The notes below the pieces were generated by a model. That model made no database searches and was not told the origin of the DNA. It saw only the letters and a program-made list of their open reading frames with translations. Shown here in pieces: positions 19,243 to 45,876 of a stretch of 64,000 bases of DNA. The stretch's first letter is position 1; each line of letters starts with the position of its first letter. The position numbers were made by a program, and so were the translations under genes. Source of the stretch: a virus. The stretch spans positions 19,335 through 83,334 of the IMG/VR virus record IMGVR_UViG_3300031834_001450; one strand, 5' to 3'.

Positions 19243-19644
19243 TTAATTTATTGCAGACATCCCCAAAATAAATCTCATTTGTTCTGTATTATTTTCAACA
19301 ATCATTACTTTAAACATAATAGAATTTGCACTAGTGTCGTGTAAAACATAATAAAATTTACAATCTTTCATTAAAATAGTAGTTATTTTAATTCCTTGAG
19401 AATCTATTTTAACTGTTATTGATTTAATTTTTTTAGGTGTTTCATCAATACCTACAACGGTAATTTCATCTGCGTCTATTATAACCATATTTCTCATATC
19501 ACCATTTAAATAAGCTTCACTTCCACCAGCAGAAATACCAAGTAATTGCCAAGTACCTATATACTTAAAATTTAAAAAACTTTCTTCTGTTGCATATAGG
19601 ACAGAACTTACAAATAACAATACTATCATTAAATATGTTTTCAT
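19243..19644 (-). CDS. Secreted hypothetical protein (lipocalin-like GTW motif)
   Basis: N-terminal signal peptide and IGTWQL. Confidence 0.55.
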   Translation of the reverse strand: MKTYLMIVLLFVSSVLYATEESFLNFKYIGTWQLLGISAGGSEAYLNGDMRNMVIIDADEITVVGIDETPKKIKSITVKIDSQGIKITTILMKDCKFYYVLHDTSANSIMFKVMIVENNTEQMRFILGMSAIN

Positions 19645-28773: not shown

Positions 28774-29277
28774 TTAACTATAAAATATTTTTATATCTAT
28801 TTCATTTTCATTACAGTAATCTACAATAAATTCAGGTATTCTATGTATTGGCCATTTACAAAAACCTAGTTTTTCTCCTAAATAATATTGTCTATAGGAT
28901 TTTACAGCATCTTTACATTTATATTGTTCTGGCATAGCTAATTTAAATTGAGTAAGTCCTCTAGATTTTAACTTTGATTGGTTAAAATTATGAATTACTT
29001 GTTCACTTTTATGAACTCTACCATATCTATAAGTATATTCTTTACAAAGTCCTAATGTATATATTTTAAGCCATTCAAAATTATCTAAACTTTCTCTCGC
29101 CCATATACAACAAGGATGATTATAATGTGTCCTTTTATAAAGTACTTCTGATTGATCAAAACAATTACATAGAATTTGAACACTCTCCAATATCATTTTC
29201 ACATTATGTTTATTACAAAGCATAATTGAATTATCTATTGGATTTTCATTTAATACAAAAATATTCAAAATATCCAT
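28774..29277 (-). CDS. Pyrimidine-dimer DNA glycosylase (DenV-like family)
   Basis: NIFVL, H.VKMILES.Q.L, YK.THYNHPC.IWARES and YR.YY. Confidence 0.8.
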   Translation of the reverse strand: MDILNIFVLNENPIDNSIMLCNKHNVKMILESVQILCNCFDQSEVLYKRTHYNHPCCIWARESLDNFEWLKIYTLGLCKEYTYRYGRVHKSEQVIHNFNQSKLKSRGLTQFKLAMPEQYKCKDAVKSYRQYYLGEKLGFCKWPIHRIPEFIVDYCNENEIDIKIFYS

Positions 29278-29672: not shown

Positions 29673-32345
29673 TTAAACTATTATTTTAAAATTATTAGTA
29701 TTTCTTACATTTAATCTTTGTAAACATTCATTCCATTCTTCTTGATGTAAATCCCAATATTGTTTACCATATCCATATTTCCATATTTCACCATATTTAA
29801 TATCAGCCATTAGTTTCACTTGATTATTATCAATATTTTTATAATATGGTATTTCCATCCAATATTTAATAATTTTACAAACTTCTTCTATTTCATTTAA
29901 GTCTAGTTCAAATACAATCTCATCATGTACATTTATAAGTATTTTAGATTTTAGATTTTTTTCTTTAAATTCTTTCCAAATATTAATCATTGCAATAATA
30001 GTAGTTTGACCACTCGTTCCTTGTACTGGAGCATTTATTGCAGCATTTAATAAGTTACCAACATCAAAAGAAGATTGTTTTTTATTATAAAAACTATCTT
30101 TTCCAATATAAGTTAATTGAGGCAATCTTCTTTTTCTTCCTAATAGAGATTTCACCCATCCATATTTTTTAGCATGTTCACGATTATTTGTTATATATGT
30201 TGCTACTTCTGGATATGATTTATAAAATGCATCCAAAAATTTATTTCCTTCATCATTAGAAATATTAAACATATTTGCTATTCCATAATTTGTAGACCCA
30301 TATAGAGCACTAAAATTTAATGACTTGGATTTACCTCTCCATTCTACAAATTCTTTATCTTCTTGACCATCTATTTTAGTTTTTGAAAATACTTCTTCAT
30401 ATGTTGTTTTTTTATTTAATAATTCAAATAATTGTACGCAAGTATAACAATGCATATCTTTATTTTCAAGTATAAGAGATTCAAGAATACCAGGACCTGA
30501 TATTTGAGAAAATATACAAACTTCCATTGCATCATAATCTGCAAAAGCCATAACCATATTTTTTGACGGTAAAAATATTTTTCTAAATTCTTTTGTTTTT
30601 GGCATATTTTGCCAATTTATAGAAGACCCTAAACCACCTCCTCCTGACATTCTACCAGTTTCAGTTCCATGTAATTTATATCCACCATATAATCTATTAT
30701 TATATATAGAAGCTAAAAATCCTTTTTCATTTTCTTCAAGTTCATCTTCATTACCAAATAATGCGTCTCTAGTAGATTCTTTTTGTTGTAATGAATATCC
30801 AAATTGAGAAATTTCTTTTGTAATATGATTATATTCTGCAATTTTTTTCATGAATGGTAAATTAGATTCTTCTGCATATCTTTCTAGTGTTTCTTTATCA
30901 AGTGTTAAATCACCATTTTTATTTAAAAGTTCTTTGCCATCAGAATTTGTTAATACTTTAAAATTTTCTAAATTTCTTAAAACTTTACTTAATTCTTTAC
31001 CACTTTTTAAATTAAAAGTATATCCAGCAATTTTATATAATTCTTGTTCTGTTTCTAATGCTTGTATTTTTAATTGTTTTACATATTCATTTAAATATTT
31101 AATATCAATTTGAACACCAGTCATTTCTATATCTATAATCATTGGTATTGCTGGCATTATAAACTTATAAAAATTATCTTTTATAAATAAATCTTCTAAT
31201 TCTAATCGATTTTTAAAATATACATATAATTGATATGTTATTATACTATCATAACAAGCATATTCAAGTAATAATTGTTCTGGTAATTTTGTAAAATCAG
31301 TATTTTTATTCTGTTTAATATATTGTTTTAACTTAATATCATATCCACCTAATTGTGTATAAATCCAAGTTAATTGTTTTAATCCATTGGGGGTATTTTC
31401 ATTAAGAAGATGAGAAGCTAACATAGTATCAAAAGTACATTTTGCATTATATATTCCATTACTAATTAAAAACTTCAAATCAAATTGGGAATGATGCAAG
31501 CAAAAATCAATATCAGTTCTATTAAATAATTCAATTAATAAATTTTTATCTATTTGATCAAAATAACAAAAATATCCAGATCTACCATCAAAAGAAAATT
31601 GAATACTATACAATTTTCCTTCTATATAATTTAAATTAGAAGTTTCAATATCTATAGCAATTGCAATAATATCTTTATTTTTTATAAGTTCTTTAAGAAA
31701 AGAATTTGGATTTTTTTCTAAAAATAAATTATATTTTGAAATTCTTCTTTTATTTTCTACTATAGAAGATAAAATAAATTTAAATTGTTGAGTAATAAAT
31801 TTATATTCATAGACATCTTTTATAGTGTCACTTATCCATTGATATAAAGCAGGAATTGGAAATATTTTACAATTAAATTCTTGAGAATATAACCAACAAT
31901 CATCTTTTTGATATTCTTGTAATGAATTATTAACTGGAATAAAAAAATGTTCAGCTCGTAATCCTTTACTTTCTGTAATAGAATATAATGCTCTACCTGT
32001 AGTTATAATACATTTTGGATTATATTTTTCTATTATTTTTTTTATATTATATTCTTTACATTTTACGTAAGTATTTATTGTATCTTGTGAAGAAAACCCA
32101 ATAGGAGTACATCCAAGAGCTGGAATAATAGCATATTTTATATTTTTAAAATAATTTTCACATAATTTTAAAAAAGGATTTAATTTATCAAATGTTTCTT
32201 TAAATTCAAGCAATATTAAAACATCTATATTTTCTTGATTTATTGAATTTCCATAATGTTCATTATATGTATTTGTATAAATAGTACTTTTATTTGCAGC
32301 ACAACTACATTTTTGTATTTTCTTTTTTTGTAAAAAATCTTCCAT
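29673..32345 (-). CDS. polA: Family A DNA polymerase with N-terminal UDG-like domain and 3'-5' exonuclease
   Basis: Exo motifs IDIET, QFDLKFL, YACYD; polymerase motifs GTETGRMS, ADYDAME, KSLNFSALYG, NAPVQG, VHDEI; N-domain NPKCIITTG resembles family-4 UDG. Confidence 0.92.
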   Translation of the reverse strand: MEDFLQKKKIQKCSCAANKSTIYTNTYNEHYGNSINQENIDVLILLEFKETFDKLNPFLKLCENYFKNIKYAIIPALGCTPIGFSSQDTINTYVKCKEYNIKKIIEKYNPKCIITTGRALYSITESKGLRAEHFFIPVNNSLQEYQKDDCWLYSQEFNCKIFPIPALYQWISDTIKDVYEYKFITQQFKFILSSIVENKRRISKYNLFLEKNPNSFLKELIKNKDIIAIAIDIETSNLNYIEGKLYSIQFSFDGRSGYFCYFDQIDKNLLIELFNRTDIDFCLHHSQFDLKFLISNGIYNAKCTFDTMLASHLLNENTPNGLKQLTWIYTQLGGYDIKLKQYIKQNKNTDFTKLPEQLLLEYACYDSIITYQLYVYFKNRLELEDLFIKDNFYKFIMPAIPMIIDIEMTGVQIDIKYLNEYVKQLKIQALETEQELYKIAGYTFNLKSGKELSKVLRNLENFKVLTNSDGKELLNKNGDLTLDKETLERYAEESNLPFMKKIAEYNHITKEISQFGYSLQQKESTRDALFGNEDELEENEKGFLASIYNNRLYGGYKLHGTETGRMSGGGGLGSSINWQNMPKTKEFRKIFLPSKNMVMAFADYDAMEVCIFSQISGPGILESLILENKDMHCYTCVQLFELLNKKTTYEEVFSKTKIDGQEDKEFVEWRGKSKSLNFSALYGSTNYGIANMFNISNDEGNKFLDAFYKSYPEVATYITNNREHAKKYGWVKSLLGRKRRLPQLTYIGKDSFYNKKQSSFDVGNLLNAAINAPVQGTSGQTTIIAMINIWKEFKEKNLKSKILINVHDEIVFELDLNEIEEVCKIIKYWMEIPYYKNIDNNQVKLMADIKYGEIWKYGYGKQYWDLHQEEWNECLQRLNVRNTNNFKIIV

Positions 32346-32390: not shown

Positions 32391-32831
32391 TTAAATTTTT
32401 TCTACTTCAATCCCTCTATTTTTTAAAAAATCTATTCCAGAAGAATCTCTATATTCTTCTCTATAAAAAACTTTTTTAATACCAGCAGATAGAATTTGTA
32501 AACTACAATTAAAACATGGAGATAATGTTATATAGATTGTTGATCCATTAGGAGAAATACCCTGTTTTACTGCTTTATGTATGGCATTAAGTTCTGAATG
32601 CATTACTTCTTTTCTAGTAACTAATTCTCCCAGTTCATTAATATATTCACATTCATTGTCCATTCCCATGGGCATACCATTATATCCATATGCTATAATA
32701 TTATGATCTTTAACAATAACGCATCCAACCTTATTACGAGTTGCATAAGACATCTGAGATGTATTAACTGCAATAGACATATATAATTGATCATATTGTT
32801 TTATTCGTTCCTTATTCATTATAACTCTCAA
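32391..32831 (-). CDS. dCMP deaminase
   Basis: KVGCVIV, GYNG, HSELNAI and SPCFNC. Confidence 0.92.
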   Translation of the reverse strand: MRVIMNKERIKQYDQLYMSIAVNTSQMSYATRNKVGCVIVKDHNIIAYGYNGMPMGMDNECEYINELGELVTRKEVMHSELNAIHKAVKQGISPNGSTIYITLSPCFNCSLQILSAGIKKVFYREEYRDSSGIDFLKNRGIEVEKI

Positions 32832-33531
32832 CTATTTTTTGTAATAAATCAAAATGTCTATCATATATATGAAAAGATCCAAAAAAGAAATTAATAATTC
32901 CCATTTGTAAAGTTGGATATATTTCTTTTAATTCTAAATATAATTTATTATAAACATAACAATGCCAATAAAAATCATTAAAAAAGCCATAAATTCCATC
33001 GCAACTTCTTTGATCTACAAAATATATCAATGAATTATTTCTAATAAAACATTGAACACTATTGGTACATACAAAATCTGACATTCCATTTCTATTATAA
33101 TCTATATGCATAGATGGTCTTGTATATAACATTAATGCTCTTCTTGATAGAGGATTAAATATTAATTCTTGTTTACAATTATTAAATTGATTATAATTCT
33201 CTTCAGAAAAAATTAAATAACCATAATTAGAATTTATTTCTTTTTTTTCATCTTTAGTACAAACATCGTTCCATATTTTAATATCATCAACATAATCAAT
33301 AATAGATAATGATTCTGAAAGATACCAATTTAATTCTTTTTCTACATATTGAATAGAAGTTTTTTTAATTTCATTAAAATTTAAAATTGATTGTACTGGA
33401 TTTAATCCTTCTATTTTACATCCAATAATTTCAACAACTTTAATACCAGTTTTATCTATTACAAACTTTTTATTTTGTATATCACTATATAATTTTTTAA
33501 AACTCGGTAACAATATTTGTTCATTAGTCAT
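32812..33531 (-). CDS. dCMP hydroxymethylase (T4 gp42-like)
   Basis: Closely tracks T4 gp42 as I recall it: DKTG.K..EIIG, EL.WY, EINSNYG, SRR..M.YTRPSM..DYN..GMSDF.CTN.VQ, RS.D...GF.ND, GS.H.Y.RHF. Catalytic Cys and the dCMP-specifying Asp are retained. Confidence 0.9.
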   Translation of the reverse strand: MTNEQILLPSFKKLYSDIQNKKFVIDKTGIKVVEIIGCKIEGLNPVQSILNFNEIKKTSIQYVEKELNWYLSESLSIIDYVDDIKIWNDVCTKDEKKEINSNYGYLIFSEENYNQFNNCKQELIFNPLSRRALMLYTRPSMHIDYNRNGMSDFVCTNSVQCFIRNNSLIYFVDQRSCDGIYGFFNDFYWHCYVYNKLYLELKEIYPTLQMGIINFFFGSFHIYDRHFDLLQKIVESYNE

Positions 33532-34736
33532 TTTAATAATCCTTCAATATCTTTAATTACATTATTTGAAATTTCTTCAAAAGCTCCTTGATTATTTCTA
33601 ATTTTAATTTCTTTAAATTCATTTGTATTAATATAATCTAAAGAATCTAGTGCATAATTTAATTTTTGTACTATGCTATCAACTATAGGTGAATCACCAT
33701 CATGATCGATATAATAAGGATACTTTTTACCACCTCTTCTAGCATATTCAAAAACCATAGGCATTATAGTAATATTATTACAATAAAGAGACTCCACTTG
33801 ACTACACCCCCCCATTCTCTCAAGAATAAATCCATGAAAGCTAATATCTGCTTTCCATAATAATTCAAAGTATTCTTGTCTATTAAGAGATCCTTCTTTA
33901 TAAATATAGAGAGGTTTAACTAATTCTTTTAATTCATCTATGGAATATTTTCCAGATGGATTTGTAAATATAACTTGAAAATCTTTTCTTTTTTCATAAA
34001 GTTTATTTACTGCTTCAATAAATTCTATGTGATGAGTATAGTTTATACCACTTAATCTATTGAGAAATAATATAGTTTTCTTTTCAAATTTTTCTTCTAA
34101 TTTATAAGTATCAGCCTCTTTTTTAGAAAATCCAAAATCCCAAATAAAACTTTTCTTTTTAATTTGATTTATTTTATTTGATTTAAAAACTAATTTAGCA
34201 TTATTAAAAAAAGCTTCTTTTGTTGATTTACAAGTAAAAATACAAAGATCAGAACATTCATATCCATCAAATTGTCTATATTGATAACTTATTTCAGTAG
34301 CCACTTTTGCTTCATTAATTTCAGGAGTATCCATCCAATAACAACAAGAAATTAACTTTGTTTCTTTTGATTTTTGAAATAAATATGTTTTTATATTTCT
34401 AGAAAGTTCTATAATATTATTCCATACAATATCAATCTTTGGAAGTTCTTTAAAAATAGAATCAAATTCAATAATATTAAAATGTTGTCGTATTGTAAAT
34501 GCATCAATAGGATAAGTATAGGGAATAAAAATAACATTTTTGTGTTTAAAGATATTATCATAAGATTTTATGTCAGCAAAATCTTTAAGTGGTGCAATAA
34601 GAATATAAACTGTCCAATTTATCTTTTCAACAATTTCAGTTAAAATCCCAACTAGCATATTAATGTTACTATCAGCGCTAATCCATTTATTTTCATTATT
34701 ATAAATACTTTGTTGCAAAATATATAAAATATTCAT
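33528..34736 (-). CDS. GT-B glycosyltransferase, candidate DNA hmC glycosyltransferase
   Basis: ILFLNRLS, LNRQEYFELLWKADI and ERMGGCSQVES (GT4-like E..E motif); translationally coupled to the hydroxymethylase. Confidence 0.75.
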   Translation of the reverse strand: MNILYILQQSIYNNENKWISADSNINMLVGILTEIVEKINWTVYILIAPLKDFADIKSYDNIFKHKNVIFIPYTYPIDAFTIRQHFNIIEFDSIFKELPKIDIVWNNIIELSRNIKTYLFQKSKETKLISCCYWMDTPEINEAKVATEISYQYRQFDGYECSDLCIFTCKSTKEAFFNNAKLVFKSNKINQIKKKSFIWDFGFSKKEADTYKLEEKFEKKTILFLNRLSGINYTHHIEFIEAVNKLYEKRKDFQVIFTNPSGKYSIDELKELVKPLYIYKEGSLNRQEYFELLWKADISFHGFILERMGGCSQVESLYCNNITIMPMVFEYARRGGKKYPYYIDHDGDSPIVDSIVQKLNYALDSLDYINTNEFKEIKIRNNQGAFEEISNNVIKDIEGLLK

Positions 34737-35419
34737 TTATTATCTCCTATTATATTTTTTAAATGCGCTTCACTTCTATTTCTTAATTTAATTTTATGTT
34801 TTCTAAGTATTTTGCTAATAGGCCCACCATAGACATTATATCTTTTTCCTATTGTATAAGGTGATTCTTTTAAATTTAAATATGAAAAAATTATTTCTTT
34901 TTCTTGCTCATCTGTAAAAAATTTACCACTAGCTTCTTGTAAATTTCTTTTATGCACATTATTTTCTTTTAATATTCTTTCAATAACCGCACCACTAACA
35001 TTAAATATTTTTCCTATATTTTTTAAAGATATTTTGTCATTATACATATTTAAAATAGATATAGTTTGTGATTGAGAAAATTGAATTTTACTTCTTCCAG
35101 GACAATCTGTATTATCTGGATCCTGTTTATTATACCCAAATTCACTATTTTTTGTTTTATAAAAGTCTATATAATATTTTTCCTTTTGTCTAAGAGTATC
35201 TTCATTATATTCTGATAGTAATTCGATAATATAAAAATTAAAATTTTCTTTGCCGTATTTTAATAATGAAAATCTTAAATGTTTATTTATGGCCTCATTT
35301 TTTAAAAATAATTGCATATGATCTTTTAACCTTGACTGAACATATTTAGAACTTCCAATATATTTTTTGTTATTTATTTTATTTTCAATACAATATATTC
35401 CAGGTTGTACAAATAGCAT
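34733..35419 (-). CDS. GIY-YIG endonuclease with C-terminal HTH repeats
   Basis: GIYCIENKINNKKYIGSS, R...H, E..YI and GYN. Confidence 0.9.
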   Translation of the reverse strand: MLFVQPGIYCIENKINNKKYIGSSKYVQSRLKDHMQLFLKNEAINKHLRFSLLKYGKENFNFYIIELLSEYNEDTLRQKEKYYIDFYKTKNSEFGYNKQDPDNTDCPGRSKIQFSQSQTISILNMYNDKISLKNIGKIFNVSGAVIERILKENNVHKRNLQEASGKFFTDEQEKEIIFSYLNLKESPYTIGKRYNVYGGPISKILRKHKIKLRNRSEAHLKNIIGDNK

Positions 35420-35920
35420 TTATTCTCCTATGAATTCTTTTATTTTTAATATTTGATTTTCTAAATTTTCATCTGTAGTATCTAATATAAGATATTCACA
35501 TTTTGTTTTTTTAAGAAATTCAATATAATATTGTTTTATTAATTTTATTTTATTTTGATTAATAACATCATCAATATATATTTTATATTCTTTTTTAAAA
35601 CAATAAATAAGTTTTAATTTCAACTTAGAAAACTCTTCATCTATTTGCCATATAAAATTTTCATTAAATTGTCTATCTAATGCTAAGGAATATGAAAAAT
35701 GACAAGCAATTCCACGATCCATAATTAAATTAGTTGGAACTTGTTTTAAATAATCTATAAAAAATCTACTTTCATATTCTACTGAAAGATCAATTTCATT
35801 ATTTTTAAAATATTCTTTTGTATTATTATTTCTATAATATGAAATATTTAATAACTTAGATATTATTTGAGCAATTGTTGTTTTTGCTGTTCTATCAGGA
35901 CCAATAAATTGAATCAACAT
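35420..35920 (-). CDS. dNMP kinase (thymidylate-kinase fold)
   Basis: GPDRTAKTT P-loop and MDRG motif. Confidence 0.8.
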   Translation of the reverse strand: MLIQFIGPDRTAKTTIAQIISKLLNISYYRNNNTKEYFKNNEIDLSVEYESRFFIDYLKQVPTNLIMDRGIACHFSYSLALDRQFNENFIWQIDEEFSKLKLKLIYCFKKEYKIYIDDVINQNKIKLIKQYYIEFLKKTKCEYLILDTTDENLENQILKIKEFIGE

Positions 35921-35931
35921 TAAATTTTTCC

Positions 35932-36621
35932 TTATATTTTTTCTAAAAAATAAATCACATCTCTACTTAATTTATAATTATTCCAAGCAAATAAAACTCG
36001 TTGAATTTCAATTGGTAAAATAGTAAACTCTTCTATTGCACAATTATTTAAATAATTATCATTTGACATACTCCATCCATGTACATCTAATATTTTGAGT
36101 CCACTTTGATTAAAACAATCTTCAAGTTCTTTATAAGTATATTCATAATTATGATATTTTGGCCAATTTACAATATTTGATATTTGATTTGGTGTACTTA
36201 TAATTAAATATTTAAAAGGTAAATTACAAATTTTATTAAAAATTTCTATTCCTTTTTCTTTTGAATTAAAATGTTCAATTACATCTAATAATAATAAACA
36301 ATCAATTTTATTTTTTAAAATAATTTCTTGAATAGTTAAAAATACATTTTCTGTTTTATAAAAAATTCCATTACTACAAAGATTATCATATATAATTGAA
36401 TCTCTATAATCAATACCAAAATAAGAAATAATTTTATTTGATTCAATTAATAATTTATTAATATATGCTGTATCACAACCCACATCAATAATTGATTCAA
36501 TATTATTTTTAATAATAAATTCTCTAACAGATTGATCTTTAAATAATTTACTTATATATCCAGGATCAAGATCTATTTTAGATAATTGTTGTCTTAATGA
36601 TGACATATCAACAATAGTCAT
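35932..36621 (-). CDS. Class I SAM-dependent methyltransferase
   Basis: IIDVGC, GID, LDVIEH, IISTPN and H..EY..EL. Confidence 0.85.
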   Translation of the reverse strand: MTIVDMSSLRQQLSKIDLDPGYISKLFKDQSVREFIIKNNIESIIDVGCDTAYINKLLIESNKIISYFGIDYRDSIIYDNLCSNGIFYKTENVFLTIQEIILKNKIDCLLLLDVIEHFNSKEKGIEIFNKICNLPFKYLIISTPNQISNIVNWPKYHNYEYTYKELEDCFNQSGLKILDVHGWSMSNDNYLNNCAIEEFTILPIEIQRVLFAWNNYKLSRDVIYFLEKI

Positions 36622-37658
36622 ATTTTTTCTAAATTTACCATTTCAATTACCCATGGTATAATTTCATCTAATGCTTTATTTAATGAAGTTTCTGCTTTAA
36701 ATCCTAATAACTTTTCTGCTTTATCAATAGAAGGAATTCGGCATTGTACATCATATTCATACGGGTTATCTGAAATATAATTAAACTCTACATTAGAATT
36801 TAATCTATCCCAAATAATTTTTGCAAGTTCTAATACAGTATAACTTTCAGGGGTACTTAAATTAAAATCAGTATTTAATGCATTTTCATTAAAAATGGCT
36901 TGATAAATCCCTTCTGCTAAATCTCCTGCATATGTATAATGGCGTATTTGATTTCCTTTTCCAAGAATATGAAGCGGGTTTTGACCTTTAATTATTTTTT
37001 GTATAAGATCAGGTATTACATGGCTAAGAGCTAATTTAATATTACCAGACATAACTACTGTTTCTGTCATAGCTGCTTGTTCCCCAATTCCAGCTGCATT
37101 AAATGGTCTTACAATAGTATATGGAAGTTTATATTGTTCATATGCACCTTTAACAAAATATTCAATTGCAAGTTTTTGAAATCCATATGTTGATAATGGA
37201 GGTGGGCAAATCAATTGATCTCCTTCTTTTGAAGGAAAAGTTTCTGTTGATTCAAAAACCATACTTGAAGATATTGCAATTATTTTTTTAAGAAATCCTT
37301 CTTTATGCGCTTTAATTGCAATATCAAAAATAGATGCGGTAAGTCTTTCATTTTCAGCAAGTAAATCATAAGCCAATTCATGAAAGAAACTTATACCACC
37401 AATCCACGCAGCTCCATGCACAATATAATCTATTTTATTAGAAAAAATTATATTTTCTAAAATATCTTTATTTTTTGCATCACCATAAAAATGAAAATAA
37501 TTTGGATGTTTATCAAAACTTTTTTCTAATGGACCATATTTCCAATCATTATCTACTCCATAAACAATATGACCTTCATTTAATAATTTTTGTATTGAAT
37601 ATCCTGCAATAAAACCTCGATCACCAGTCCAAAATATTTTAGCCATTAATTTCTCCAA
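36618..37658 (-). CDS. NAD-dependent nucleotide-sugar epimerase/dehydratase/decarboxylase (extended SDR)
   Basis: TGDRGFIA, SSSMV, YGFQK (YxxxK), VRPFN and G.G.Q.R.YTY. Confidence 0.92.
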   Translation of the reverse strand: MEKLMAKIFWTGDRGFIAGYSIQKLLNEGHIVYGVDNDWKYGPLEKSFDKHPNYFHFYGDAKNKDILENIIFSNKIDYIVHGAAWIGGISFFHELAYDLLAENERLTASIFDIAIKAHKEGFLKKIIAISSSMVFESTETFPSKEGDQLICPPPLSTYGFQKLAIEYFVKGAYEQYKLPYTIVRPFNAAGIGEQAAMTETVVMSGNIKLALSHVIPDLIQKIIKGQNPLHILGKGNQIRHYTYAGDLAEGIYQAIFNENALNTDFNLSTPESYTVLELAKIIWDRLNSNVEFNYISDNPYEYDVQCRIPSIDKAEKLLGFKAETSLNKALDEIIPWVIEMVNLEKI

Positions 37659-38878
37659 TTATTATATAAATTTTCTTTTAATATATTCCATCCATCAATT
37701 ACTATTTTATCATTAAATTCTTCTTTAGTAAAAGTAAGATATTCTTTATGATTTATTGCTATAATAATAATATCACATTGTTTAACTTCTTCTATTGAAT
37801 AATTTATAAAAATCATATTATTATATTTATCATTATATTCTCCTAACGGAAGATTAGGTTCATTTATTTTAATTTGTTCTGGTAAATTACGTTCTAAATA
37901 TCTAATTAATTTAGGTGTTAAATTATCTCTAGTATCATCAGTATTACTTTTAAATGTAAATCCAAAAATTCCAATAGTTTTATTTTTAATATCATTTTGA
38001 ATTAAATCAACATAAAATTTTGGTGTAAATTCATTAATTTTGTAAGCTTGTAATATTAAATCTGTTTGTGGAAAATTTTCATTAATCATTCCCCAATCTT
38101 TCGTTAAACATGTGCCTTTTGCAAAACCAGGAGTCAATAATCCTTTATTTCTATCATATCCAGGATTCATTAAAGAAAATAATTTATATATATCAACTCC
38201 AAATGATTGTGACATATATGAAAAATAATTAGGAATTGCCATATTTATGTAACGATAAATATTTGTAAATAATTTACTTAATTCAGCTTCAATAAAAGTT
38301 GATTTAAAGATTTGAATTCCTAAAATAGAAAAAATATTTTTTGCAAGATCAAAACTAATATCATCTTTTACTCCAATAACTTGAGGTAATTCTAATAATT
38401 CTTTATATGCTTCGCCTTCAACTATTCTTTCAGGACACATTGCTAAATAAAAATCTTTACCAAGAATATAGTTTGTTTTATTTTCAATAATATTTTTGAT
38501 ATACTCAGTTGTATTAGGTGCAACTGTTGATCTAAGAATAATTAATTTATTTTTAATATCTATTTTAGAAATTAAATCATTAATTACGAATGTTACTTGA
38601 GATAAATCTGTTTCAATATGTTCTCCTAGTGGAGTTCCAACAGTTAGTATATATGCTTTTGCATCAGGGTAATTTTCATATTTTGAATTATAAATTGTAA
38701 AAGTTTCTTTAACTAATTCATCATATCCTGGTTCATAAAATGGCATTTTATTATTTTTAATACCCTCTATCATTTCATCATTAATATCTACACCACAAAC
38801 ATTTAACTTTTTTTCTCGTAAAGATAATGCCAATGGAAGACCAACTCTTCCACATCCTATTACACAAATATCATACAT
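37646..38878 (-). CDS. UDP-sugar 6-dehydrogenase (WecC/WbpA-type)
   Basis: VIGCGRVGLP, VGTP, RSTVAP.TT, CPER, AEL.KL..N, G.CL.KD and FK.NTDD.R. Confidence 0.92.
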   Translation of the reverse strand: MYDICVIGCGRVGLPLALSLREKKLNVCGVDINDEMIEGIKNNKMPFYEPGYDELVKETFTIYNSKYENYPDAKAYILTVGTPLGEHIETDLSQVTFVINDLISKIDIKNKLIILRSTVAPNTTEYIKNIIENKTNYILGKDFYLAMCPERIVEGEAYKELLELPQVIGVKDDISFDLAKNIFSILGIQIFKSTFIEAELSKLFTNIYRYINMAIPNYFSYMSQSFGVDIYKLFSLMNPGYDRNKGLLTPGFAKGTCLTKDWGMINENFPQTDLILQAYKINEFTPKFYVDLIQNDIKNKTIGIFGFTFKSNTDDTRDNLTPKLIRYLERNLPEQIKINEPNLPLGEYNDKYNNMIFINYSIEEVKQCDIIIIAINHKEYLTFTKEEFNDKIVIDGWNILKENLYNNWRN

Positions 38879-38900
38879 ATATTAACTCCATTTTTATTTT

Positions 38901-39395
38901 CTATTTTATTCCCGTACTTCCAAAACCACCACTTCCTCTTGAAGATTCTTTATCTATATAAAGTTCTGAAAATTCTACTTCATATGGTAAAAGATAAGAA
39001 ATAGGAATTAGTATAAATTGAATTATTTTTTCATTTTGTTCTATAACCACTATTTCATTAGAAGAATTAATAAGAGAAATATGTATTTCACCTAAATAAT
39101 CTTCATCTATAGTTTCTGCTGCTTTTATTAAACCTCTTCTTGAACTTATTCCAGATTTATTAAATGCGTTTAACATAAATCCATCTGGTATATTTGCATG
39201 AATACCTGATGGAATTAAACATCTTTCATTTGGATTTAGGATAATTGCTGTATTATTTATTTGAATATTTGAATTTTTTAATTTAAAATCTAATAAAAAT
39301 TGTGAATCAAATACAGGAATAAAAAAATCTATTCCAGCAGATTTTGGAGTTGATCTAATTGGACTTTTTACCTCTCTAATTTTCGAAAATTTCAT
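38901..39395 (-). CDS. dut: Trimeric dUTPase (variant motifs)
   Basis: SAGIDF, NKSG, IDEDY.GEI, Q and RGSGGFGSTG. Confidence 0.9.
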   Translation of the reverse strand: MKFSKIREVKSPIRSTPKSAGIDFFIPVFDSQFLLDFKLKNSNIQINNTAIILNPNERCLIPSGIHANIPDGFMLNAFNKSGISSRRGLIKAAETIDEDYLGEIHISLINSSNEIVVIEQNEKIIQFILIPISYLLPYEVEFSELYIDKESSRGSGGFGSTGIK

Positions 39396-39767: not shown

Positions 39768-39962
39768 TTAATTTTCTTTTATTGCATTCGCTGGACATTC
39801 AAAATTTATAATACAAGTTTTACAATTTTTACATTTAGTTTGATCTATAGTACTTTGTAAATATCCTTTCTTAATTATATTTAAATGATCTATTTGAATA
39901 GCTTCAAAAGGACATTCTTCTACACACATCCCACACGAAATACAGTCTTCTATAATTCTCAA
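39768..39962 (-). CDS. 2x[4Fe-4S] ferredoxin
   Basis: CISCGMCVEECP and CKNCKTC.....CP. Confidence 0.9.
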   Translation of the reverse strand: MRIIEDCISCGMCVEECPFEAIQIDHLNIIKKGYLQSTIDQTKCKNCKTCIINFECPANAIKEN

Positions 39963-40786
39963 TCTATTTCTCCTATTTTATAATAGCAAATTTCATTTAA
40001 TACGGTTTCTCTTTTTCTATTAGGACTTATATTTTTTAATTTATTCAAATAGATTTTATTTTTAAAATATTTATTACCTATTTCATTCTCTATATCAAAA
40101 TAAATAATATCATTGGAAATAAAATCTAATTGTTTAAACATTTCTTCCAAATCCTGTATACTCCATCCATTAGAATTAACCATTTTATTTATTTGATAGG
40201 GGGGATCTAAAATATATAAACTATTTTTTAAATTTATAATATTAAAAGCATTATTTGATATAAATAATTTATCTTTAATGAGTTTAAAGTTTTTTAAAGA
40301 ATATTCAAAATCTCTACATGTATAATTACTAATAAACCTGTTCCCAAAACTTTGATTAAATCCATTAGGTCCAAATCTATACATAGTATTTATACAACTA
40401 TTTACTAAAATTATTAAACCAAATGCTTCTTCTTTAGTCTGCTTTTTCCATAAAATATTATTAAAATAATCTCTAAAATTATAATATCCATTATAAGTTG
40501 AAACATTATATTGAAGATTATTTACGTAAGTAGTAAACTCACCTTCATCTATTAAGAATAGATGTTCATAAATATTTAATAAATTAATATCTATTTCTGA
40601 AACATAATAACTATTAAATTGTTTTTGTAAATTTAATAATATTTGTGCAGAACCTAAAAAAGGTTCAACATAAATATTTTTATTTGATTTTTTTACAAGA
40701 TCATTTATCATATCTAAATGAATAAGTTTATTACCCATATATTGGAATAGTCTAGATATAATTTGTTTTCTTTGTAAAAAACTCAA
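39959..40786 (-). CDS. dam: Dam-like N6-adenine DNA methyltransferase (D12 class)
   Basis: YMGNK, YVEPFLGS, FN..FG and DPPY. Confidence 0.85.
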   Translation of the reverse strand: MSFLQRKQIISRLFQYMGNKLIHLDMINDLVKKSNKNIYVEPFLGSAQILLNLQKQFNSYYVSEIDINLLNIYEHLFLIDEGEFTTYVNNLQYNVSTYNGYYNFRDYFNNILWKKQTKEEAFGLIILVNSCINTMYRFGPNGFNQSFGNRFISNYTCRDFEYSLKNFKLIKDKLFISNNAFNIINLKNSLYILDPPYQINKMVNSNGWSIQDLEEMFKQLDFISNDIIYFDIENEIGNKYFKNKIYLNKLKNISPNRKRETVLNEICYYKIGEID

Positions 40787-41672: not shown

Positions 41673-42107
41673 TTATTTTGTACCTGTTGACCCAAAACCA
41701 CCTCTTGGATTATCTGTCATATGTTCTACTTCTGTAATAAGTATTTGAGGCATTTTTTCTACTACTCGAAATTGACAAACTCTATCATTCTTTTTTATAT
41801 AAGATTCTCTTGTTGCATATATTGGCATTTTTACAATATCAGATTCTCCACAAAACGATTCATCTAAAATTCCCATAGAATTTATTTGTAAAATTCCCCA
41901 AATTTTAAAAGTAGAAGATCTTGGTAATATATGCATTTCATATCCAGGAGGAACTTTAACAGATACACCTAAATCAATAAGTCTAAAATCACCTTGTTCT
42001 ATATGATAATCATAAGCACTTCTTAAATCTATCCAATCTCCTTTCTCTATTTTTTCTATTTTAATTAAATCTAATACATGATATTTTACTTTTAATTCAA
42101 GAATCAT
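41673..42107 (-). CDS. dut: Second trimeric dUTPase
   Basis: GDWIDLR, PRSS, NSMGILDESF.G, DRVCQF and RGGFGSTG. Confidence 0.9.
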   Translation of the reverse strand: MILELKVKYHVLDLIKIEKIEKGDWIDLRSAYDYHIEQGDFRLIDLGVSVKVPPGYEMHILPRSSTFKIWGILQINSMGILDESFCGESDIVKMPIYATRESYIKKNDRVCQFRVVEKMPQILITEVEHMTDNPRGGFGSTGTK

Positions 42108-43258: not shown

Positions 43259-45268
43259 TTAATTCACAATTTCACGATCAAAATCTCCATTACTAAATTC
43301 TCTTCTTATTGTATGATCATAAATTTGTTTAAATGTTGACATATCACTTACATCTACGAAAAAACCTACTACTCTAGCAATTTTCTTTTTAATTAATTTA
43401 CCACATTTAGCACAAGTCTCTCTATTACCTATAATTACATGTCCATCAACACACTGACAAAAAGTTCCAGTTATTGCAAAATGTTCTAAATTACATTCTA
43501 TTGCATAATTAATAAGTTTTTCAGCTTGTTTAGATGTAATGTGTTCCCCTGTATTTATATGTGATATACCTCCACCAGTTAAACTATTAAGATATTTACC
43601 ATCTATTTCCATTTTTTCCCATATTGTATGCTTTTGATCAGTTAGTGGCACAAATTGATTAGAGTAAATATTGTAAGGAATATTTTTTTCACCAAATAAC
43701 AATTTATCTATTCTTGGTAATCTATGAGACATAGATTCTCCAGGTACTTGTTCAATATTAAAAGTACATCCAATAAAATTTTCATTATTTGAATTTACCT
43801 CATTATTAAAATAATCAAGAAATTCTTTTAATATATCTATATTTTTTAATTGTTTAAATTTATTTTTTAAAATTTCCTCTGCTTCTACATATCCTAATAT
43901 TCCAAGAGTAGAAAACATTCTTTCTAACCGAATCCAACCAATTTGAAGAAATAATTGAGAATGTTTAGAATCTTCTAATAGTTGTTTATGAGAATATAAT
44001 ATTTTTTTAGCATTATTTGTATGTACTTTTATTAATTCAAAAAATTCTTCATATGTTTTACTCATTAATGCAAATCTAGCAAAATTTAATGTTAGTACTC
44101 TATGACTACCAAGAGATATAGATCCACCTGCACCAAAACTATTTGCTTGAGCAGCTAATTCTATCATTTCTATAGAATTAATTAGGCGGCAACAAGATGC
44201 AATTTTATTTCCTTCACTTACAAAAACATTATATCTATAAATATCTTTTTTACAAACAGATTTAAGAAATGATTTATCTTCTATAACCCATTTTCCTTCT
44301 TTATCTCTTTTCTTAGATATATTTAAAGTCGCGATTGGAAAACGATAAGGAATTCCATCATTCATTGGATCCCCTTTATCGAAAAATTCCATAAAAATAT
44401 TTTGTAATTCTAAAATAAAATCTATCACTGTATCTAAATCATATGGATAATATCCATCTTCTTGCATATAATACCAATTATATTCTTCTTTAACAAGTTT
44501 ATTAAGTTTTTCTCTATCAAATAAAGATATATTTGTAAATGGGCATTCAACTCCTCCACTTCTACTTAAAGAATTAAAGCCATGTATTACTTTTTGATAT
44601 TGATTTTTTATATATTTTCTATAAATGGGATCTTGTAAATCTTCTATTTTTTTATTTTCTTTTAATAAAAGTAGATGCGCAATATCAAGAAAAAAAGTTC
44701 CTACTGCAATTGCACCAGCAAGCGCGTTTGACATTTGATGAATAATTTCATTAAGAAGAGAAGTATATGAATCTAATCTTTTAACAGGACTAGAAGGAAG
44801 TTGACCAAAGTTTTTACCCATAGTAACTAATTTACTTGCATCAAAAGCCCAACAATAAGGAACCATAATATTTGTACTATCTGATAAAGCTAAAGTATAA
44901 TCATACATCAAAGATGTTAAATGTTTTGCTTCTTTCTTACCATATATTTCAGCCATTTTACGATAAAGAAATCTATATCCTGTTATTTTTTCAAAAGGAG
45001 TCATAGATTCTTTCATAATTCCTTTTATTGTTTTTGTTCCTTTATTACTATTATCATCCCAACTTTCATCATTCAATTTACCTATTACTAATTTTTCTAT
45101 TTTATCTATAACAGAAAAATCTTCTTTTCTCATCCCGTGTATTTTAAGAATTTGATCTGTAATTACCTCACTTTCTTCTACTTCAATACCATATGTTTTT
45201 ATAAGTTGATTTTGTAAAGATTTATACACTGAATTTATTGCTTGATTTATTGATGATTTTTCAAACAT
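43259..45268 (-). CDS. nrdD: Anaerobic ribonucleoside-triphosphate reductase (class III)
   Basis: PYC, FPI.T, SCCRL, EQVPGES, Zn motif and glycyl-radical RVVGFF. Confidence 0.92.
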   Translation of the reverse strand: MFEKSSINQAINSVYKSLQNQLIKTYGIEVEESEVITDQILKIHGMRKEDFSVIDKIEKLVIGKLNDESWDDNSNKGTKTIKGIMKESMTPFEKITGYRFLYRKMAEIYGKKEAKHLTSLMYDYTLALSDSTNIMVPYCWAFDASKLVTMGKNFGQLPSSPVKRLDSYTSLLNEIIHQMSNALAGAIAVGTFFLDIAHLLLLKENKKIEDLQDPIYRKYIKNQYQKVIHGFNSLSRSGGVECPFTNISLFDREKLNKLVKEEYNWYYMQEDGYYPYDLDTVIDFILELQNIFMEFFDKGDPMNDGIPYRFPIATLNISKKRDKEGKWVIEDKSFLKSVCKKDIYRYNVFVSEGNKIASCCRLINSIEMIELAAQANSFGAGGSISLGSHRVLTLNFARFALMSKTYEEFFELIKVHTNNAKKILYSHKQLLEDSKHSQLFLQIGWIRLERMFSTLGILGYVEAEEILKNKFKQLKNIDILKEFLDYFNNEVNSNNENFIGCTFNIEQVPGESMSHRLPRIDKLLFGEKNIPYNIYSNQFVPLTDQKHTIWEKMEIDGKYLNSLTGGGISHINTGEHITSKQAEKLINYAIECNLEHFAITGTFCQCVDGHVIIGNRETCAKCGKLIKKKIARVVGFFVDVSDMSTFKQIYDHTIRREFSNGDFDREIVN

Positions 45269-45333: not shown

Positions 45334-45876
45334 TTAAAAATACATCCTACCATCACGAGTACAAAGATTAAAAATAGAATTATATATTTTTTGATTTGTA
45401 GAAGCAAGTTGAAAATAATGTTCAGTTTTCATTGGTTCTTGTTTTAATTCTTCTTGATATTCTCCAGTTTTAAGATATGTAAAACCAAGTATATTTTTTC
45501 TTTTTACTTGTTCAATGGAATCTCCAGTATAAAGACAAATATCAAATAAATTACCATAACTTCTTATAAATAATTTTGTAAATGCTGCATTTTTTTCATA
45601 TAAGAAATCTGCTCCTCCTAATACAAGTTTATTTGTATTATTTTTATAACAAAAAGTATATAATTCAGCATATAACTGTTTTACTGTGAATGTTTTAATA
45701 GTAAGATTTAAATTTTCAGGAATTAAATTATAATCATGTAATATAGTATTATGACATCCTTTACAATAGTGATTACATCCAATACAACTAAGATATGCAC
45801 TATAACTATCATTATCAGGATAATCTAACCAAGTACCTGAAAAAGGATATAAAATTTTTATTACTGGGTTAATCAT
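45334..45876 (-). CDS. nrdG: NrdD activating radical SAM protein
   Basis: GCNHYCKGCHN, LGG, LYTG and LASTNQ; adjacent to nrdD. Confidence 0.88.
   Translation of the reverse strand: MINPVIKILYPFSGTWLDYPDNDSYSAYLSCIGCNHYCKGCHNTILHDYNLIPENLNLTIKTFTVKQLYAELYTFCYKNNTNKLVLGGADFLYEKNAAFTKLFIRSYGNLFDICLYTGDSIEQVKRKNILGFTYLKTGEYQEELKQEPMKTEHYFQLASTNQKIYNSIFNLCTRDGRMYF

Follow-up and report, generated by a model that had tools for sequence, protein, structure and literature searches.

A gene block of an uncultured sediment phage predicted to place a phage-made sugar acid on hydroxymethylcytosine

What does a phage build with nine tightly packed genes that combine nucleotide metabolism with the chemistry of sugars? 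The question is raised by IMG/VR virus record IMGVR_UViG_3300031834_001450, in which we analysed a stretch of 64,000 nucleotides (positions 19,335 to 83,334 of the record; hereafter the window, to which all coordinates without a locus name refer). At 32391-39395 of the window, nine co-oriented open reading frames (ORFs) on the minus strand fill the span exactly, with intergenic gaps and overlaps of -20 to +22 nt. They encode a dUTPase, a nucleotide-sugar dehydrogenase, a short-chain dehydrogenase/reductase (SDR), a methyltransferase, a kinase, a GIY-YIG nuclease, a predicted glycosyltransferase (GT), a dCMP hydroxymethylase and a dCMP deaminase. An original prediction, made from the letters of the window, had delimited this block and named its families; its coordinates proved exact and every assignment good at the family level. 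We favour, with moderate confidence, the reading that the block is a cassette for pre-replicative hypermodification of cytosine, in which 5-hydroxymethylcytosine (5hmC) would be made first and would then receive a phage-made sugar acid, probably epimerised and possibly methylated.

The predicted base and its candidate glycosyltransferase

The gene at 32812-33531 encodes a dCMP hydroxymethylase of the T4 gp42 type. Its best match in the PDB is T4 gp42 (1b49, E 4.1e-52), with the CMP hydroxymethylase MilA reaching just 3e-5, and at the DNA level stretches of the gene share 70-80% identity with T4-like gene 42. In this family, an Asp at the position of ThyA N177 selects dCMP, an acidic residue at that of ThyA L143 accompanies non-methyl products, and an Asn at that of ThyA D169 is the mark of RB69-type 5-hydroxy-dCMP synthases (Lee et al. 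2026, PMC13326640). By alignment, Asp152, Cys155, Asp178 and Asp186 of the window enzyme stand at the positions of ThyA L143, C146, D169 and N177. The catalytic Cys155, aligned to Cys148 of T4, lies in the motif DFVCTN, and Asp178 in the motif RSCD. Because these four residues agree with the published assignments (PMC13326640), the enzyme bears the signature of 5-hydroxymethyl-dCMP (5hm-dCMP) synthesis, not that of 5-hydroxycytosine (5hoC) or of dUMP. The same Cys/Asp/Asp pattern is shared by 28 of 28 homologues that adjoin this GT family elsewhere, or 29/29 with the window included. We thus consider it very probable that hydroxymethylcytosine is made. 5hmC, produced before replication by a gp42-type enzyme and a kinase, is also the base that the original prediction had named, and both the gp42 match and the signature residues bear it out.

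A different base would result if this homologue of thymidylate synthase (TS) yielded 5-hydroxy-dCMP, as in RB69, or 5hm-dUMP. The RB69-type synthases are likewise gp42-like and share the acidic change at L143 and the N177D change. However, at the position of ThyA D169 the residue is Asp, and not Asn, in the window enzyme as in each of the 28 homologues beside the GT family, the N177 position is Asp in every one of them as well, and the DNA similarity of the gene is to T4-like dCMP hydroxymethylase genes; we regard such a base as very unlikely. The hydroxymethylase is the sole TS-family gene in the 83-kb record, which holds no ThyA or ThyX, and among the relatives ThyX was found in G003 only.

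Which enzyme would act on this base? The candidate is a 402-aa protein encoded at 33528-34736, for which we found no Pfam, PHROG or NCBIfam family and no PDB chain by sequence even at E 10. By tblastn it had no match in 50,697 GenBank phage records, and the same was true of two distant members of its family. A few family members do match PF00534, PF13692 or PF13439. The AlphaFold2 (AF2) model, built from a 40-sequence alignment, has a pLDDT of 95.6 and a pTM of 0.92. In VIA it superposes on sucrose-phosphate synthase 6kih (Z 31.9, rmsd 3.1 over 359 residues) and on MshA (Z 31.8, rmsd 3.0 over 357 residues), followed by BshA (Z 30.3), PimA (28.6) and PglA (28.1). From this model we are confident that the protein is a retaining, GT4-like transferase of the GT-B fold, superposing at full length over two Rossmann-like domains, so that the GT-B call of the original prediction agrees with the fold. 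GT4 enzymes have a C-terminal acidic pair and a basic residue that binds phosphate; in the present family R227, E306 and E315 do not vary, but the two Glu stand one residue further apart than in EX7E. The T4 alpha- and beta-glucosyltransferases are not among the Foldseek and VIA matches listed, which is no evidence that the folds differ; a BFVD entry named 'DNA alpha-glucosyltransferase' stands at rank 41 of the fold search with a TM of 0.46. The family comprises 102 homologues at 90% clustering, and 607 clusters at E<=1e-3 (109 at E<=1e-30) among 1.84 billion representatives; it appears to be known from uncultured viruses only.

The main argument for a GT that serves the modified base and not a surface glycan comes from its neighbourhood. 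We set the ORFs of 58 loci, drawn from IMG/VR and from metagenomes of JGI/ENA, against the proteins of the window. Genes were then counted in the 15 non-redundant loci that extend at least 3 kb to either side of the GT, the strain of the window itself being left out. A gene of the dCMP hydroxymethylase type was found no more than 5 kb from the GT in 14/15 loci, and a Tmk-like kinase and an SDR were each found as often; an NDP-sugar dehydrogenase was present in 12/15, a dCMP deaminase in 11/15, and a methyltransferase of the window type in 3/15. The original prediction had proposed to look for the same cluster in other phages, and the cassette does recur around the GT homologues. The arrangement is therefore unlikely to be due to chance, as it recurs in divergent viral contigs. 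Some of the phages that bear the cassette have a family-B polymerase (PolB) instead of family A (PolA) (L032:3211-5655, L053:10254-12698). Because the module recurs at GT identities of 32-65% and with either polymerase lineage, it appears to move between phage lineages as a unit. Given these neighbours, we think it likely that the GT acts on hydroxymethylcytosine.

The GIY-YIG gene (34733-35419) does not share this history. It encodes a free-standing homing endonuclease with a helix-turn-helix tail (PF01541, 2.4e-10; phrog_7168, 1.3e-21), abuts the stop codon of the kinase gene and overlaps the start of the GT gene by 4 nt. We found it only in the window and in the near-identical strain L001, and in 0/15 of the counted loci; in most relatives in which kinase and GT are neighbours, these two genes abut or overlap each other. 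It is thus a strain-specific selfish insert and not a member of the pathway, contrary to its earlier inclusion in the locus.

The predicted donor sugar and the exchange of its genes between strains

The gene at 37646-38878 encodes a NAD-dependent NDP-sugar 6-dehydrogenase that scores above the cut-off of TIGR03026 (4e-80; 269.6 bits against 189.8). Its closest PDB entries are UDP-ManNAc dehydrogenases (4r16, 2e-46; Cap5O, 7e-41), with Ugd entries at 4e-24 or weaker. Residues 148-151 read CPER, as in E. coli WecC, against SPEF in E. coli Ugd, and both this motif and the catalytic Cys (GTCLTKD, of the form GxCLxKD) are retained in 17/17 full-length relatives. The enzyme had been assigned to the WecC/WbpA type and, with it, to N-acetylhexosamine (HexNAc) substrates. 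The first part holds, given the motif and the scores nearer to WecC and Cap5O than to Ugd. The second does not follow, because the enzyme misses every equivalog cut-off by a wide distance (NF040825, 177 against 750; NF008286, 152 against 459) and its identities to E. coli WecC and to Ugd are nearly equal (25% and 22%). The TviB equivalog is also far from being reached (78 against a cut-off of 592). We predict a UDP-(HexNAc or hexose)uronic acid as the product. No WecB-type 2-epimerase was found in the record or in five large relatives, one of them the complete G004 of 178,280 bp; since such an enzyme would matter if the substrate were UDP-ManNAc, its absence slightly favours a universal substrate, for instance UDP-GlcNAc or UDP-Glc. 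Short variants of the dehydrogenase (265-278 aa) occupy the corresponding slot in L006:7443-8243, L034:351-1148, L036:2141-2938 and L018:451-1287. Those of L006 and L034, which were scanned, consist of the NAD-binding and central domains without the C-terminal UDP-binding domain.

The adjoining gene (36618-37658; PF01370, 3.6e-34) encodes an extended SDR with an epimerase-type active site. The NAD motif TGDRGFIAG, S131 and the Y158-x3-K162 part of the triad (SSSM...YGFQK) are invariant in its family. S131-S132-M133 align to T-S-E of PDB entry 8vr2, on which our literature search returned nothing relevant. The enzyme thus has Ser/Met where 4,6-dehydratases have Asp-Glu and where UXS/ArnA-type decarboxylases have Glu. 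The family profile matches 8vr2 (1e-40), T. maritima GalE (7e-37), 6dnt (3e-35) and the UDP-GlcA 4-epimerase 6zl6 (2e-31), while the score for the GalE equivalog is far below its cut-off (72 against 262). We conclude that the SDR is most likely a nucleotide-sugar epimerase acting at C4. The original prediction had also allowed for a decarboxylated pentosamine. A donor of this kind, be it UDP-xylose, UDP-XylNAc or a 4-keto-pentose, would require the SDR to work as a UXS/ArnA-type decarboxylase. The pairing of a dehydrogenase with an SDR fits the logic of UXS too, UXS1 entries are among the PDB matches (6e-17 with the single sequence, 1e-29 with the profile), and the top match, 8vr2, has the TSE motif. 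However, the position of the Glu that decarboxylases and 4,6-dehydratases need is held by an invariant Met, next to a Ser, in 26/26 aligned members (the window and 25 relatives), and after 8vr2 the top full-length profile matches are 4-epimerases (4zrm, 6dnt, 6zl6). Because of this epimerase-type site a pentose donor is highly improbable. The broader claim, that the phage encodes its own donor-sugar enzymes, is borne out by the presence of dehydrogenase and SDR in the block, and a phage-made sugar of the uronic-acid type is the donor we expect, with fair confidence.

Comparison with L001 revealed that these two genes vary between near-identical strains. Over 10 kb, L001 and the window are at least 99% identical in DNA, except in a patch of about 1.9 kb (window ~36600-38460, L001:5200-7120), in which the sliding identity falls to 47-85%. 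It takes in the entire SDR and all of the dehydrogenase except its N-terminal third; the L001 allele of the two genes lies at L001:4785-7121. In the dehydrogenase, residues 1-140 are identical (140/140) and the remainder agrees at 177/267 positions (66%). The SDRs are 49% identical, and the nearest relative of the L001 SDR belongs to another clade; GT, methyltransferase and kinase are 99-100% identical. The two alleles coexist within single samples, as seen in the sediment runs X3 and X6: the contig of higher depth diverges at the borders of the patch, and lower-depth contigs match the window allele inside it. Because the divergence is limited to the patch and both alleles occur in the same samples, we conclude that a natural population swaps its donor-sugar genes as a cassette. 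Two SDR alleles with one GT would mean either that both alleles lead to the same donor or that the GT is promiscuous. This swap of donor genes between strains is new in the present analysis, and it offers a concrete case for testing whether defence pressure diversifies the sugar chemistry of DNA.

Predicted methylation, nucleotide supply and competing readings

The gene at 35932-36621 encodes a class I S-adenosylmethionine (SAM) methyltransferase, matched weakly by Methyltransf_23 (6e-6) and in agreement with this class by fold. All of its Atlas neighbours are Methyltransf_11, 23 or 25, and the AF2 model (pLDDT 89) gives tied, generic class I matches with Z of 14-18: 4htf at 18.4, Hen1 at 16.7 and 15.8, ChlM at 16.5 and RebM at 14.4, with BioC and CmoM also among them. 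Hen1 is a ribose O-methyltransferase of nucleic acids and RebM a sugar O-methyltransferase; ChlM, BioC and CmoM methylate carboxyl groups. The model points to an enzyme of the small-molecule type, with a hydroxyl or the carboxylate of the sugar as the predicted site of methylation, two targets that the tied matches cannot separate. We lean moderately towards the sugar as the place of the methyl group. In all, the methyltransferase family counts 14 homologues, in 6 of which the longest contig equals in length one that bears a GT homologue. FkbM-type methyltransferases replace the window type in the corresponding slot of two relatives (L006:9362-10000 and L015:2268-2957), and methylation therefore appears to be a recurring, non-orthologous feature of the module.

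In at least 13 relatives, a conserved gene of about 190 aa of the uracil-DNA glycosylase (UDG) superfamily (PF03167, 1e-15 to 1e-19) lies between SDR or methyltransferase and kinase or GT; examples with a CxxC and a GRNPG-type motif are L005:8263-8826 and L007:11146-11739. L018:3378-4769 encodes a fusion of a UDG-superfamily domain with a methyltransferase that hhalign places in the family of the window enzyme (probability 98.9, E 2e-17). Because the fusion joins a DNA-binding domain of this superfamily to the methyltransferase, it suggests that tailoring takes place on DNA. A radical SAM/SPASM protein (L018:2336-3349) adjoins the fusion gene.

The remaining genes of the block handle nucleotides. 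The kinase (35420-35920) is matched by phrog_761 at 4.6e-5 as a single sequence; its family profile is closest, among solved structures, to SPbeta YorR (7e-11), followed by dGK and Tmk, and is not gp1-like. The family alignment has a Tmk-like P-loop (GxDxxGKT) and a DR motif, and we predict that the kinase phosphorylates hm-dCMP. The dCMP deaminase (32391-32831) is well matched by PF00383 (2.9e-23) and phrog_174 (2.1e-52). The trimeric dUTPase-family pyrophosphatase at the head of the block (38901-39395; PF00692, 1.9e-16; phrog_135, 1.6e-27; PDB 8y1q, 5e-20) retains canonical dUTPase motifs, among them III (IDEDY) and V (GGFGSTG). A supply of dUMP is its probable role, and dCTP may be a further substrate. 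A second trimeric paralogue of 144 aa (41673-42107; PF00692, 3e-11) is 27% identical to it, and one of the two may have diverged to a substrate such as dCTP. In the complete relative G004, the record to which L005 belongs, the slot just upstream of the dehydrogenase is occupied by a dUTPase_2 gene (PF08761, 129268-129597), which is not an orthologue of the trimeric dUTPase that it replaces there. PF08761 is the all-alpha family of T4 gp56. Because of this gene in the corresponding slot, a pyrophosphatase looks like a part of the module.

With these parts in hand, one may propose the following pathway. The dUTPase-family enzyme and the dCMP deaminase would manage the pools of dUTP, dCMP and dUMP. 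The gp42-type enzyme would convert dCMP to 5-hydroxymethyl-dCMP, the Tmk-like kinase would phosphorylate it, and the family-A polymerase of the phage would incorporate hydroxymethylcytosine into DNA. In parallel, the WecC/Cap5O-like dehydrogenase would oxidise C6 of host UDP-GlcNAc, UDP-ManNAc or UDP-Glc to a uronic acid, which the SDR would epimerise, most likely at C4, to UDP-GalNAcA or UDP-GalA in the logic of TviB/TviC or Ugd/Gla. The retaining GT4-like enzyme would place this sugar on the hydroxymethyl group of hydroxymethylcytosine in DNA, and the class I methyltransferase would then methylate it at a hydroxyl or at the carboxylate. In its fullest form the proposal is that the virion base is 5hmC carrying a C4-epimerised N-acetylhexosaminuronic or hexuronic acid, O-methylated or methyl-esterified on DNA, attached by transferases of a family that is confined to uncultured phages, with donor genes swapped between co-existing strains so that the chemistry of the mark would vary within the population. 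This complete version we put forward tentatively. Decorating DNA in this general manner is a known strategy against restriction, and the protection from nucleases that the original prediction expected may follow from it.

Several findings weigh against the proposal, in whole or in part. By sequence, no similarity could be detected between the GT and any DNA glycosyltransferase characterised so far, and practically the same GT occurs next to either of two SDR alleles of 49% identity. The missed equivalog cut-offs of the dehydrogenase and the lack of a WecB-type enzyme count here as well. In the window kinase, the second Gly of the P-loop is replaced by Ala. A UDG-superfamily gene was sought in the 83-kb record and not found. 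Finally, the record, put at 54% complete by CheckV, gave no match to PF08761 or MazG and thus no gp56-type dCTPase, so that the replacement of cytosine may be less than full.

Could the sugar be a common one of the host, such as glucose or GlcNAc, with dehydrogenase, SDR and methyltransferase serving another glycan, for instance in virion protein glycosylation or host-surface conversion? The GT family can evidently work without these genes, as locus L023 has the order deaminase-UDG-kinase-GT-hydroxymethylase and neither SDR nor dehydrogenase within 5 kb, and a GT indifferent to the neighbouring SDR would fit the two alleles. Against this, the frequent SDR and dehydrogenase genes near the GT are usually adjacent or overlapping inside the block of nucleotide metabolism, and the methyltransferase family has few members, found for the most part on contigs with the GT; a host sugar is unlikely, to our judgement. 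Another possibility is that glycosylation takes place on the nucleotide, hm-dCMP or hm-dCTP, with the Tmk-like kinase handling the glycosylated form and no transfer to DNA after replication. It would account for the kinase beside the GT in 14/15 loci, often with overlapping genes. Yet the polymerase would need to accept a bulky acidic dNTP, the fusion of UDG domain and methyltransferase suggests tailoring on DNA, and every characterised phage glycosylation of hydroxymethyl- or hydroxycytosine acts on DNA (PMC13326640). We hold glycosylation at the nucleotide level to be quite improbable, and retain transfer of a phage-made sugar acid to hydroxymethylcytosine in DNA as the favoured reading.

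The phage and known systems

The source record measures 83,334 bp. The plus strand carries tail and baseplate genes before ~15 kb, and the minus strand thereafter carries replication and nucleotide metabolism. The window is very AT-rich (~22% GC), at which composition a scan for promoters and terminators was uninformative (123 sites seen against 127 expected). The phage comes from sediment and is present in at least nine sediment metagenome runs. Its family-A DNA polymerase (29673-32345) lies 45 nt downstream of the nine-gene block. Because this polymerase shares no more than 28% identity with that of any phage in GenBank, and the GT has no match among GenBank phages, the phage appears to represent an uncultured and deep-branching lineage. 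A pyrimidine-dimer glycosylase resembling T4 endonuclease V is encoded at 28774-29277 and a Dam-like N6-adenine DNA methyltransferase at 39959-40786. The anaerobic ribonucleotide reductase NrdD (43259-45268) and an NrdG-like activase (45334-45876) point to an anaerobic host.

If true, our reading would place pre-replicative glycosylation of hydroxymethylcytosine outside the T4-like phages as well, in a deep-branching lineage whose polymerase is of family A. It would also bring an acidic, possibly methylated sugar into the known range of DNA decorations and give a name to a nameless GT family of several hundred clusters. DNA bearing a methyl-capped sugar acid would confront CRISPR nucleases, type IV restriction enzymes and defences based on DNA glycosylases with a new class of substrate, and the enzymes could be used as tools for tagging hydroxymethylcytosine. 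The literature we searched held no paper on the combination of a gp42-type route with a dehydrogenase, an epimerase, a methyltransferase and this GT family. The original prediction went further in suggesting that the modification was undescribed, and this overstated its novelty, because its elements have been reported separately. A phage-made donor, UDP-arabinose, is known from RB69 and DLP3, which carry arabinosyl-5hoC (PMC13326640). Hexose, HexNAc, heptose, Kdo and hexuronic acid have been described on 5hmC, and epimerase and GT pairs from TET-type clusters were reconstituted for HexNAc and hexuronic acid (bioRxiv 10.1101/2023.12.21.572611).

Among the known systems, the glucosyl-hydroxymethylcytosine pathway of the T-even phages (T4 gp42, gp1, gp56, cd and the alpha- and beta-glucosyltransferases) provides the general logic, in which gp42 and a kinase are followed by a GT for hydroxymethylcytosine. 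Its gp42-type hydroxymethylase agrees with that of the window in the residues for catalysis and specificity, and both systems have a dNMP kinase, a dCMP deaminase, a pyrophosphatase, and a GT-B transferase for a sugar on hydroxymethylcytosine. Unlike the T-even phages, the window has a family-A polymerase, a Tmk/dNK-like and not a gp1-like kinase, a trimeric dUTPase where no gp56-type enzyme was found in the record, and a GT4-like transferase with no sequence link to the T4 glucosyltransferases. T4 uses host UDP-glucose, whereas here phage enzymes would make the donor and a methyltransferase is added.

The systems of RB69, DLP3 and HY126 (arabinosyl-5hoC) and of RL38JI (hexosyl-5hoC) resemble the window in their clustering of a TS homologue, a kinase and a GT near replication genes, and in a phage-encoded nucleotide-sugar pathway (PMC13326640). 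In the Rhizobium phage RL38JI, with its glycosylated cytosine, the order kinase-GT-TS recurs, and the GT4-like transferases match the same PDB entries (7qsg, 8ixp, 7fg9 and 5ze7). In contrast, the TS homologues of RB69-type systems carry the D169N change and make 5-hydroxy-dCMP, whereas the window enzyme retains the Asp. Their donor pathway consists of an arabinose-5-P isomerase, a kinase/uridylyltransferase and a phosphatase (or mutase), in place of which the window has a dehydrogenase and an epimerase.

In the clusters that join a C5-methyltransferase and a 5mYOX (TET) enzyme with a GT, the 'epimerase + GT' subclass II is the nearest parallel, with its epimerase-GT pair and non-glucose sugars on 5hmC, and some of its GT-B enzymes resemble MshA and BshA (bioRxiv 10.1101/2023.12.21.572611). 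There, however, hydroxymethylcytosine arises post-replicatively, as cytosines at specific sites are methylated and then oxidised, whereas here it would be made as a nucleotide. Neither the nine genes nor their neighbours matched the C5-cytosine methyltransferase or TET/JBP dioxygenase families, the Dam-like enzyme being the only DNA methyltransferase nearby. The host supplies the uronic acid of those clusters, while the window has its own dehydrogenase and a methyltransferase.

For the donor pathway itself, the parallels lie in bacteria, where TviB/TviC, WbpO/WbpP and Ugd/Gla are pairs of a dehydrogenase and a 4-epimerase for acidic sugars. As in the window, adjacent genes for an NDP-sugar 6-dehydrogenase and an extended-SDR epimerase feed a transferase of the GT4 type. 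The acceptors of the bacterial pairs are surface polysaccharides, whereas that of the phage cassette would be DNA.

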